Source: Rhizodiscina lignyota
Taxonomy: Eukaryota
NCBI GenBank assembly: GCA_010015805.1
Contig: ML978128.1
Coordinates: 1,426,001 to 1,490,000 of the forward strand
Direction of reading: 5' to 3'
Length of the DNA: 64,000 bases
Position 1 is the stretch's first letter. Every line of letters begins with the position of its first letter. The position numbers and the translations under genes are program-made. Under the pieces are notes generated by a model, which was given only the letters and a program-made list of their open reading frames with translations, was not told the origin of the DNA and did not search any database. Below, one piece after another: positions 44,161-47,928 of this stretch.

Positions 44161-47144
44161 GTAACAATTCCATTTACACGGAGGACCATGCAGGAAATAC
44201 CACAGAATTCGACTCACTTGGTCGCGAATGTACATATATAACATCTCTGTATGAATAAACGTGTTCGAAACTGGTTTGGTACAGCTCTCACGTCACATCC
44301 ATGTTGGGGCACTAATCGGGTTTTAGTATACTTTACAGTAGTCTGAGCTCGTATTCGAATGTCGCCTGGATGTACTTGCTATGCATAGTTCGGACTTTGA
44401 AAATTGTGCAATGTTGTACGATAATTGCATTCTCCAGCAGCGCACAACACCAGACCTTTCAATAATTGATTGTCATCTGGGGCCTATCATGTACTTTCGT
44501 ACACCAAACCGTTGGCGCATGTGCGAGCTCTTGAGGTTCGTCGCCGATCCAGTCTCAACACTTCCCATAGATCCTTGGTGGCACCACTGGCTCTTCCTCT
44601 TTGCGTACTTTTGGATCGCTCTGACAGCTGGCTCAATCACCCCGAGTTTTCTGAGGCTCTTCACGATGGGTACGACCCGCTTCCTGTAATCTTTCCGCAT
44701 GGCCTAGCCATGTTACTACATGTGCCCTATTGTCGCGCATGGTTGCAGCAGCATGGCTCAAGAGCTCTGTCTCATCCAGTGATACAGCATAGCCGGGTTT
44801 GCGCTGTTTGGCAGCCTCGTGCGTCTATCGCCTGAAGGCTCCTGTAGAAGTCCGCGACGTCGATAGAAGGGTCGATCTGTTATTCGGCAGGAGTTCTTTC
44901 ATGCCGCTCGCGCTTGTTGACACTTTCATACACCCATCATTAGAATGCTTCTGCGGCCGGGTAGCGCGGTGGATTGAAGGCTCGTTGTGCGATCACTGGG
45001 AGCTCCTTCTTCACCACTCGCACCAACTTGAAGCTCGTTACGCAACCCAGCTAAAGTTCCTACTTGGCCGCCGTGTGCCAATGGAACTCTTGCTATGATC
45101 GCCCAAATACCCGTTTGACCGGCCTACAACGTCGGTCGGAGGCTTGTTGCGATGCATCAGGGAGGCCCTTTTTGTGACATGAACGCCGACTGGAGCATTG
45201 CTTCCATTAGCCGAGCCCTTCTGCTGCTGGCCTGCAACGCCAACCGAAACCTTGCTGCGCAATCCTTTGGGTGTTCCACTTCGGTAGCTCACGCTGATGG
45301 GAATATTACTTCGATCATCCGAGCGTTTCTTCTTGCGAAGCCCAAGGTCGACTGGAGGCTCGTGCAGCAGCATCCTCAAGTGAGGCTCTCTGGGGACCTT
45401 GATATCATAGATCGCCCGGTAATGTTCGCATGTTCGCCGCGCCCACCTCTCCTTTGGATTGAGATGCTTGTTTGTTCTGGTCTTCAGGCCCCCGCCGATG
45501 CTTGTTGCGGAGCCAACTGAGAGGAGGGAGGATATATATACCTCGAAACACTGTATCCCTAAGTGCGATATCGGAAAAGAGACGGTGAGTAGCTACCAAT
45601 GCCCAAAGTGGAAATGTTGATGTCGTCCTAAGAAGCGTCAGGTCGAGTTATCGCCGAGATCGGTTCGTCGCCCGGGTCAAAGCTCGTTGGTGCTGTAAAT
45701 ATTCTTGCTGAACAAATGCCTGCATATTCATCCAGTGCTGAAAGCGCAATCATGGCGTCGTAGACAGGCAGGAGGTAGGAGGAAGCGAGATCGTTGTTTG
45801 ATGATAGAGGTGATAGGGGTGTATATATCTCGAAGAACCCTTGTGTTGATACGGAGATGAGAACGGTGCTAGTCCAGTTAGTTACTATCGTCCATTAGAG
45901 AGCAAGAATCCAAATAAGCAAGTCAGCTCCAACTACCAAGCAGCCAACCTAGCTTTGTAGAACCGCAGAATTGCTTATGCTCTAGATCCCATCTGACCGT
46001 TGCCTTGAGGAACCCCTTGGTCCAACAGCCACACGCCAGCCATACGCCTAAATTAGATGGCAGCTTGATCAGTCTTGGCCGGAAAGCAGTGCGCCGTTGT
46101 CGATTGGTTTGCAGAGCTAGAATCTTAAACAATATATTTGCGAAGGCTACGACTGGCATGAACGACTAGAAGAGGCTCTAACTGGATTATGTAACAAACG
46201 GTCAATGAATAGTATGAACTGGTCGTAGAAGTGTTATGTCGATCGGAGTATGAAGTTCCCACGGACACAAAACGACAGAGATGGGGCCTCCACTGAGTAG
46301 CGCAAGAGGCCTTCAATTGACGTTCCGGGTTGTTTGCAGAAGAATTCCAAGGGGGGGAACTGAAGCCAACGACCGCGGTAGGCAGCCTTTGATGTAAAAG
46401 ACTTCATTATAAGCGATTACCATGAGCGTGATGGAGATTCTGTGTCGGAGATAAATGTCGGTTCAGACCTTGAGGCAGTTGATAATAGTCGACTTGACGT
46501 CGGCATTAATGTGAAACAGTTTCGGACTTCTGTGTCAGGTCAAAAAGAGGCCTTCGGGGACGGACATGGATTTCAATCCCTGCACTAAGACGTCTTACCC
46601 TGCAGGCCCTCGAATTGTTAATGCGTTTGTTGGAGCTCATGAACATGCCAGCTCCGACTATGGCATCGATCCAATGCATGAAGAGTGATCACTCGTGTTA
46701 TTGTCGTCTCGGTAGCCCGCTGTCTAGATGGAAAAGTGGCTTGGCCGGGTCACTCTAGCGTAACGCTTCGACCCGTGAACTTTTATATTAGACCACTACC
46801 CAATTCATTAGAGATCTTTCAAAAATAGTTGAACAATCGTAGAAATAAAATACTTCAGAGTAAAATGAGAATTATAATATATTCAACATAGTTGTGAGAT
46901 ACGGCAGCTAGAATGTTGGGCCCCGTTTTTGCCCAAAGGGCCATTTTCCAGCGCCACATCAACGCTGGATTCTGCTGAGCCGATAGAGTATGCCTGACTA
47001 AGGAAATATGTACTCCGTAACCGGTAACAAAAATCCCTGACAGCTGATTGGACAAGGCCACAGTTTAAGTGTGGGGTGAGCGAGATGGCTATATATACTA
47101 ACTCGACATTCCAACAAGCTGTACTTTCGGGATTGTGGTGTAGT

Positions 47145-47195
47145 GTGGGTAGCTCCAAAATTCGTCAAATAAACTCAAATTCTAACGTCCAATAG
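47145..47195 (+). other. Spliceosomal-type intron 1 in the tRNA D-loop (51 nt)
   Basis: GTGGGT donor, TTCTAAC branch site, CAATAG acceptor; removal restores the AGTGGTA D-loop. Confidence 0.8.
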
Positions 47196-47215
47196 GGTAG
47201 CACGTAACGTTGTGG

Positions 47216-47240
47216 CTTATGCTTCGACATGGACTCAGTT
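47216..47240 (+). other. Canonical tRNA (TSEN-type) intron at position 37/38 (25 nt)
   Basis: Starts one nt after the GTG anticodon; removal restores loop TTGTGGC; its 3' part CTCAG can pair partly with TTGTG. Confidence 0.8.
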
Positions 47241-47253
47241 CCGTTCCGACCCC

Positions 47254-47310
47254 GTAAGTTCTGGTCTTATTGGCTCTTTGTTCCACCAAATTCTAACGGT
47301 AAATGGATAG
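47254..47310 (+). other. Spliceosomal-type intron 2 in the tRNA T-stem (57 nt)
   Basis: GTAAGT donor, TTCTAAC branch site, GATAG acceptor; removal restores the CCCGG/CCGGG T-stem. Confidence 0.82.
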
Positions 47311-47857
47311 GGTTCGATTCCGGGCAATCCCACACTCTTTTTTTGCGCTTTCTTTATCATATATCTCCGCCCATTCCATCCAGGTTCGCACTTGAAGAGA
47401 AATCCTCTCTATTTTTTTTGGCTGCGAGAATGAATGTGAATCTTGCATATTGAAAGGCTGATGACGCGGAGGCAAATTTGTGAAATAGTATTTTATTTTT
47501 GGACTGTAGTGGACTGCTGTGCCTCATCTCACAGGTGATCTTTGAATATGCCTGTCGCGCTTAACCATAGTGGTATACCCGGCGGAACAGCAAATAAATA
47601 CTGGAATAAAAGAGAAACCCTTTGAATGCTGCAAGTTTGATGATTACTGTTCATAGGTGTCACGAAGGAAGAGATTCTGCATGACTACTATGTATGTGAG
47701 GTTATTCGGCCGTGATACGAACATCGCAAAGAACGTTCTATTGATGAAAAGACGAAGAAACGAAGAGACGGAGGGAGAAATAACCCAGATAGTACGCTAA
47801 AGCGATTCAAGATAGTTAGGTTGGAATATATCAACACTCCTCAAACTCTGCTCCAAC

Positions 47858-47928
47858 AACTTACGGGGTCGGAACGGAACTGTGTCCATGTCGAAGCATT
47901 CCACAACGTTCCCGTGCTACCCTATTGG
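47858..47928 (-). repeat. Inverted copy of the tRNA-His middle exon with flanking splice sites
   Basis: Reverse complement reads ccaatag|GGTAGCACGGGAACGTTGTGGaatgcttcgacatggacacagttCCGTTCCGACCCC|gtaagtt and matches 47189-47260 with three small differences. Confidence 0.88.

Follow-up and report, generated by a model that had tools for sequence, protein, structure and literature searches.

A histidine tRNA gene of Rhizodiscina lignyota apparently split by two spliceosomal-type introns and a canonical tRNA intron

The stretch of DNA described here, referred to as the window, comprises 64,000 nucleotides (nt) of the fungus Rhizodiscina lignyota (assembly GCA_010015805.1, contig ML978128.1, forward-strand positions 1,426,001 to 1,490,000). 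Positions 47129-47344 of the window hold a gene for the histidine transfer RNA (tRNA-His) in three pieces, located at 47129-47144 (16 nt), 47196-47253 (58 nt) and 47311-47332 (22 nt). The two inserts that separate these pieces resemble the introns of messenger RNA (mRNA) genes, and the middle piece carries a further, canonical tRNA intron. Judged from the sequence, the best explanation is three introns of two unrelated kinds: two U2-type GT-AG introns, after tRNA position 16 and at 51/52, and one intron at 37/38 of the type removed by the tRNA splicing endonuclease TSEN.

The gene lies on the plus strand. Exon 1 (47129-47144) covers tRNA positions 1-16 and contains the acceptor strand GGGATTG, U8, G9, the D-stem GTGT and the D-loop bases AGT. 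Insert 1 (47145-47195, 51 nt) interrupts the D-loop after position 16; this spliceosomal-type insert begins with GTGGGT, contains TTCTAAC with 9 nt behind it and ends in TAG. The first part of exon 2 (47196-47215) supplies the remainder of the D-loop (GGTA), the D-stem strand GCAC, G26, the anticodon stem TAACG and the loop TTGTGG with the anticodon GTG. The canonical intron of TSEN type follows at 47216-47240 (25 nt, 37/38), as placed by the program ARAGORN, and the second part of exon 2 (47241-47253) continues with C38, the anticodon stem CGTTC, the variable loop CGAC and the first T-stem bases, CCC (49-51). Insert 2 (47254-47310, 57 nt) is again of the spliceosomal type. It splits the T-stem at 51/52, begins with GTAAGT, contains TTCTAAC with 13 nt behind it, ends in TAG and stands immediately 5′ of the B box. 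Exon 3 (47311-47332) completes the T-stem (GG), the T-loop TTCGATT, the T-stem strand CCGGG, the acceptor strand CAATCCC and A73.

Elements resembling those of a gene read by RNA polymerase III (Pol III) surround and overlap these pieces. The B box GGTTCGATTCC at 47311-47321 is intact within exon 3 and is the sole strict B box of the 64 kb. Read directly from the letters, a TATA-like element, TATATATA, lies at 47090-47097 on the plus strand, 39 to 32 nt 5′ of the tRNA start, and a terminator-like run of seven T residues lies at 47338-47344, 5 nt 3′ of A73. The TATA-like element would serve as a promoter; TATATA is similarly spaced in two unsplit relatives (L001 and L018), members of a set of metagenome loci considered below. 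Eukaryotic tRNA-His has A73, a 4-nt variable loop and a G-1 that is not encoded and is added later by Thg1. The window gene has A73 and the 4-nt variable loop CGAC, and the base preceding its position 1 is C.

Insert 1 opens with bases, GTGGGTAGC, that also open exon 2. Because of this repetition, the DNA keeps an A-box-like reading, TGGTGTAGTGTGGGTAGC, in which the D-loop is longer. This repeat may be the reason for the less common GTGGGT 5′ site of insert 1. There is also a 7-nt direct repeat, GGGTAGC, at 47147-47153 (the start of insert 1) and at 47194-47200 (spanning its 3′ border). This repeat could be a trace of the origin of the intron, either as a duplication or as a target-site repeat.

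The first-pass annotation of this DNA had proposed that the three pieces assemble into a tRNA-His(GUG) cloverleaf with a 25-nt intron at 37/38, and had expected tRNA scanners to overlook such a gene. The pieces were joined by coordinates in a script and the joined sequence was then scored with ARAGORN. This resulted in a complete tRNA-His(gtg) of 72 nt with a 7-bp acceptor stem, GGGATTG/CAATCCC, and the 25-nt intron at the canonical site, so that the proposed cloverleaf is exact to the base. Removal of a single insert gave spurious and badly paired calls (Arg-tct, Thr-cgt). ARAGORN made no tRNA call at the locus on the unspliced DNA, and with Rfam at gathering scores the window gave no match to a tRNA. 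A search of 47050-47400 against Rfam at E ≤ 10 likewise gave no tRNA, the lone match being a chance hit to an unrelated family (E 2.3). The expectation that scanners pass over the gene is thereby borne out for both tools.

The resemblance of the inserts to the mRNA introns of this genome, also part of the first-pass annotation, was examined on three levels. Both inserts have a 5′ site of the form GTRNGY at their first base, together with a CTRAY branch motif and a YAG end; more narrowly, they have GTRRGT, TTCTAAC and TAG. When all three splice signals are required at fixed ends, 6 of the 895,244 segments with a length of 51-57 nt that the window offers on its two strands qualify, and both inserts are among the six. 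Since the signals are this rare and the cloverleaf is restored to the base, two such inserts are not the work of chance. The likeness to a tRNA-His gene and the borders of the inserts are confirmed as real.

A census of the window provided a second comparison. Candidate introns were collected that bridge open reading frames of at least 50 codons and have a 5′ site, a branch motif and YAG; as the signals acted as the filter, the lengths alone are independent. The 19 candidates have a median length of 53 nt (range 42-115 nt), within which the 51 and 57 nt of the inserts fall, and their 5′ sites include GTAAGT (6), GTGAGT (6) and GTGGGT (2). The third comparison came from the neighbouring gene, a YAG7-like gene of 475 amino acids at 50049-48433 on the minus strand. 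Its three introns were verified by exact spliced alignment to a Rhizodiscina lignyota protein, with all aligned exon residues identical, which puts the window in this species of the Dothideomycetes or in a very close relative. They lie at 49837-49768 (70 nt, GTGAGT..TTCTAAC..AAG), 49739-49672 (68 nt, GTACGG..CACTAAC..CAG) and 49157-49104 (54 nt, GTGCGT..GGCTGAC..CAG). The TTCTAAC branch motif of both tRNA inserts thus occurs in one of these three protein-verified introns. In length and in every signal, both inserts look like ordinary introns of this genome, as had been suggested. The other open reading frames of the window belong to fungal housekeeping families (RNA12/YME2, N1221 and GH43).

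With up to 20% substitutions allowed, the 64 kb contains no second copy of either insert. The contigs of a 34.2-Mb DNA run, compared with positions 46900-47600 at a likeness of at least 80%, returned the window's own contig and one inverted fragment only; this comparison is blind to an intact paralogue, with which the shared pieces would be too short, and to older, degenerated copies of the inserts. Within the 64 kb and the 34.2-Mb run, the inserts do not have the many near-identical copies by which introner-like elements are recognized.

The inverted fragment lies at 47858-47928 on the minus strand, approximately 500 nt past the stop codon of the YAG7-like gene. This partial copy consists of exon 2, the canonical intron and 7 nt of each insert (CCAATAG...GTAAGTT), with 92% identity over 73 columns, and its ends coincide with the splice sites. 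No copy of exon 1 or exon 3 was seen beside it. The fragment has GG at the T27 of the gene, resulting in a perfect GAACG/CGTTC stem and one extra base, and its tRNA intron is 2 nt shorter. It is probably a dead, short templated inverted duplication.

Relatives of the gene were sought in metagenome contigs, a scan of related DNA having been suggested in the first-pass annotation. A scan with the 22-mer of exon 3 gave no matches. A second metagenome scan used the start of exon 2 as the query with 2-3 free bases and yielded 39 loci, whereas the 20-mer core had no match in either the genome-contig or the viral-contig collection. The 39 loci comprise 27 fungal-type tRNA-His genes, two of them cut by contig ends, and 12 unrelated chance matches. 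The exon 2 20-mer (47196-47215) is identical in all 27 genes. ARAGORN labelled 19 of these as His, two as Ser (L009 and L013), one as Ala (L035) and one as undetermined (L038); it made no call on two loci in their unspliced form (L002 and L033) or on the two cut by contig ends. The non-His labels arise because the long canonical intron is placed differently. The ARAGORN anticodon labels are unreliable for this tRNA-His family.

When parsed against the layout of the family, the 25 complete loci and the window gene gave nine distinct mature forms. An intron of 11-48 nt is present at 37/38 in 25/25 complete relatives, in agreement with its placement in the window gene, and A73 is found in all nine forms. 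The acceptor pairs 3-7 covary across the nine forms, with standard pairs in 62 of 63 cells. The acceptor stem of the window gene, GGGATTG/CAATCCC, is unique in this set and is perfectly paired, with its two strands in exons 1 and 3, approximately 190 nt apart. At positions 8-65 the spliced product is identical to the uninterrupted gene L035. The first-pass annotation had raised the U27:C43 mismatch at the top of the anticodon stem as a possible sign of decay. This caveat falls away, as position 27:43 is never a standard pair in any of the nine forms (U-C in five, U-U in four), and the non-pair is a family trait. In one of the relatives (L026), tRNA-Phe(gaa) is encoded at 31-120 on the minus strand, approximately 365 nt from the tRNA-His gene, with a canonical intron of 17 nt.

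Three of the 27 metagenome genes (L002, L032 and L033) contain GT..AG inserts, and the other 24 have none; the suggested scan has thus added three further, independent split tRNA-His genes from other fungi. L002 has two inserts, one of 53 nt at 48/49 (GTAAGT..GCTAAC..TAG) and one of 52 nt at 61/62 (GTGAGT..CCTAAC..TAG). L032 and L033 each have one insert at 49/50, of 52 nt and 53 nt, respectively, both with GTAAGC..TACTGAC..CAG. Together with the window gene there are six inserts in four genes at five insert positions, none of which passes through the middle of the B box. TTTT is absent from all six inserts; as it occurs in only 3 of the 19 candidate mRNA introns, its absence is powerless as a sign of Pol III transcription. 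Following removal of the inserts by script, ARAGORN found full cloverleaves in L002, L032 and L033. Their identity as tRNA-His rests on the family alignment, in which they have the anticodon loop TTGTGG, and over positions 8-65 they differ from the window gene by one D-loop base. L032 and L033 come from the same metagenome, where they represent separate contigs, one with a length of 1.07 Mb. Both tRNA-His matches from this metagenome are split, and no unsplit gene with the core motif was found from it.

Comparison of the split relatives with each other provides signs of selection on the joined product while the gene was split. The L002 insert at 48/49 and the L032/L033 insert have a common 12-nt word, a match that 1 in 20,000 shuffles reaches, and a similar branch region. 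On account of this common word, the two would most simply be one inherited intron. Their borders lie 1 nt apart on both sides, with the joined 9-mer unchanged, as would be expected if selection acted on the spliced product. Three pairs differ between the acceptor stems of these split lineages, GGTGATG/CATCGCC and GGTGCCT/AGGCGCC, and all three are compensated. Between L032 and L033, the exons and the canonical intron are identical, the flanks have diverged, and the GT-AG insert has approximately 5-6 differences with its signals kept. Alignment of insert 2 of the window gene with the 48/49 and 49/50 inserts of the relatives revealed shared signals only.

A number of further features are common to the three split relatives. 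They share a 19-nt word, ATGAACGCACAGCGWTTCA, approximately 45-27 nt upstream of the tRNA, in a flank that has otherwise diverged. It lies at approximately 456-474 of L002, approximately 455-473 of L033 and on the minus strand of L032, and it is absent upstream of the window gene and of the unsplit genes. This word may act as a promoter or leader element specific to the lineage. The canonical introns of L002, L032 and L033 are 35-48 nt long and start with a word, CACAAC, that can pair with GTTGTG of the anticodon stem-loop. Within them lies a conserved hairpin of 7 bp, CGTCCTC/GAGGGCG, the loop of which varies in length between lineages. The 25-nt canonical intron of the window gene has neither the anticodon-complementary word nor this hairpin.

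Taken together, it appears that the locus is a working nuclear tRNA-His(GUG) gene, probably transcribed by Pol III, whose product would need the spliceosome and then TSEN; a probability of roughly 0.7 is given to this reading. The layout of the window gene is that of the unsplit relatives, with a TATA-like element at about -35, a contiguous B box and a T run just 3′ of A73. T runs are found 3′ of the relatives, both split and unsplit, and runs of T5-T8 lie close behind all four split genes. In the proposed pathway, Pol III would transcribe from the TATA-like element, the A-box-like word and the intact B box and would stop at the T7 run. The spliceosome would then remove both GT-AG introns in the nucleus. 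The tRNA body could then fold, have its ends trimmed and be exported, after which TSEN and a tRNA ligase would remove the 25-nt intron and Thg1 would add G-1. TSEN measures from the folded tRNA body and, in yeasts, acts after export. For these reasons, the spliceosome is placed before TSEN; the polymerase, the spliceosomal removal and the order of the steps are all inferred.

A broader proposal is that in a filamentous ascomycete group the histidine tRNA, perhaps in every copy, is encoded only in pieces joined by the spliceosome, with introns old enough to slide and to pass across lineages. The balance of the evidence tips slightly in favour of this extension.

Several observations weigh against a working gene of this kind. 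The A box of the window gene is interrupted by insert 1 in the DNA, the spacing from A box to B box is approximately 175 nt as opposed to the usual few dozen, and exon 1 is merely 16 nt. Pol III transcripts also have no cap. When the joined precursor is folded, the acceptor and T arms form (z = -1.9, which is not decisive), but the middle of the minimum free energy (MFE) structure is not a clean cloverleaf. The joined L002, L032 and L033 sequences are labelled Leu(taa/caa) by ARAGORN, with the long canonical intron misplaced. Their 1-kb loci contain no convincing coding open reading frames, which leaves the contigs taxonomically unplaced. Finally, the decayed inverted fragment of exon 2, approximately 600 nt from the gene, indicates that the locus has been rearranged.

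This fragment could also be expected beside a dead copy, that is, a tRNA-His gene killed by two intron-like insertions while intact genes elsewhere supply the tRNA. The insertions would have arisen through reverse splicing into the tRNA followed by reverse transcription, or through an intron-generating mobile element. Recent intron gains by introner-like elements are described for the Dothideomycetes in parts of PMC4457414, and an intact paralogue would share only pieces too short for the comparison at 80% likeness. However, the inserts are not multi-copy in either the 64 kb or the 34-Mb run, at the thresholds given above, and a dead copy would hardly yield a product identical to intact L035 at positions 8-65 together with a perfectly paired, lineage-specific acceptor stem. 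In the relatives, the acceptor stem has undergone three compensatory changes and the intron borders have slid by 1 nt without altering the product, all in the presence of an inherited insert, and in L032 and L033 two paralogues have each retained the insert together with its signals. Intact paralogues might in principle have held the exons uniform through concerted evolution, but gene conversion would then need to act on exons of 12-22 nt and still spare the inserts between them. A dead copy is therefore considered unlikely. It is rather improbable that the introns are as described but lie in a longer, capped precursor made by RNA polymerase II (Pol II), from which RNase P and RNase Z would free the tRNA after splicing. 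The spliceosome is ordinarily recruited in connection with Pol II and the cap, and the A box of the window gene is interrupted. The three split relatives also have, in addition to ATGAACGCACAGCGWTTCA, a TATA-like element approximately 65 nt upstream, unlike the unsplit genes, so that their promoter may differ. Against Pol II stand the TATA-like element at about -35, the intact B box and the T7 run 5 nt behind A73 of the window gene, all as in the unsplit relatives, and the T5-T8 runs behind all four split genes. A spliced Pol III transcript is also known, namely the U6 RNA of Schizosaccharomyces pombe (PMC5855946, in part).

Two further explanations carry far less weight. The inserts could be ectopic introns of the tRNA type, cut by a protein enzyme that recognizes a fold resembling a bulge-helix-bulge (BHB; two 3-nt bulges with a 4-bp helix between them), given that multiple ectopic introns are known in nuclear tRNA genes of the red alga Cyanidioschyzon merolae (PMC3728597 and PMC3978253, both in part). 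A structure-guided endonuclease needs no GT, branch or AG signals, yet the full set is present in 6/6 inserts of the four genes. The unspliced precursor of 205 nt folds no better than its shuffles (z = +0.99, which is not decisive), and neither its MFE structure nor its centroid structure has a BHB at the insert borders, a dedicated BHB search not having been made. Cutting by such an enzyme is accordingly regarded as highly improbable. A chance resemblance or an assembly artefact is hardly credible at all. In its favour, the stretch is found in only one public DNA run, which may be the window's own source. The rarity of the signals (the 6 in 895,244 noted above), a cloverleaf exact to the base, the same kind of gene in independent contigs of other samples and the identity of the run's contig to the window over all 701 bases compared speak against it.

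If the gene works as proposed, with transcription by Pol III and removal of both inserts by the spliceosome, the spliceosome would act on a second kind of Pol III transcript beside U6, and one small RNA would require both eukaryotic splicing systems in sequence. Annotated genomes of such fungi would be wrong in showing no tRNA-His, as the gene escapes both ARAGORN and Rfam. Genes of this kind would also offer a clean natural setting in which to study how introns are gained, how they slide by 1 nt and how splice sites are chosen, given exons of just 12-22 nt and a product known to the base. If pieces joined by the spliceosome are the sole source, tRNAs would form a new class of natural spliceosome substrate, and the only decoder of one amino acid would be tied to the capacity of the cell for pre-mRNA splicing.

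The first-pass annotation had known of no spliceosomal introns in a tRNA. A full-text literature search, with subscription journals largely outside its reach and supplements excluded, revealed no description of spliceosomal introns in tRNA genes, and the exact phrase “spliceosomal introns in tRNA” was without match, which agrees with that statement. In the text available from a review of spliceosomal introns in non-coding RNAs, only U6, U2, U5, U1 and ribosomal RNA (rRNA) are named, and no tRNA (PMC5855946); the corresponding portion of a fungal survey adds U3 (PMC5832005). According to a tRNA review and a review of non-canonical splicing from 2026, tRNA splicing does not depend on the spliceosome.

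The closest known counterpart is the fungal U6 small nuclear RNA (snRNA). The single U6 gene of S. pombe gives a Pol III transcript from which an intron is removed by the spliceosome, and U6 introns in S. pombe and other fungi were described by Tani and Ohshima (1989, 1991) and Canzler et al. (2016), as cited in the sections of PMC5855946 available. As in fungal U6, the host is a small, structured, non-coding Pol III RNA, and the introns are short, with a canonical 5′ site, branch and 3′ site and little else conserved. Several introns may occur per gene (up to four in U6), at insertion sites that differ between lineages (PMC5855946, in part). Unlike U6, a tRNA lies outside the spliceosome, so that the explanation offered for U6, reverse splicing at the active site, is not obviously applicable. 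The precursor described here also differs in having an intron of TSEN type, which would place two splicing systems on one RNA of 72 nt.

Spliceosomal introns are likewise present in the genes for fungal U1, U2 and U5 snRNA, U3 small nucleolar RNA and nuclear rRNA (PMC5855946 and PMC5832005, both in part). These are normal GT-AG introns in structural RNA genes, identified computationally and for the most part not directly proven at the RNA level, and they are lineage-specific and located at a few preferred positions, much as in the tRNA-His genes. Their hosts, however, are mostly Pol II or Pol I transcripts, and none is a tRNA. Breaks at non-canonical sites of tRNA genes, including the D-arm and the T-arm and sometimes several in one gene, are known from the nuclear genes of C. 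merolae and from archaea (PMC3728597 and PMC3978253, in part), and there, too, standard scanners miss the genes. The introns of those tRNAs are defined by a BHB and cut by an endonuclease, whereas the inserts in tRNA-His carry spliceosomal signals, with no BHB in the predicted structures. What would be new here is that introns of the mRNA type, already known from other non-coding RNA genes, are now met in tRNAs and in combination with a TSEN intron.

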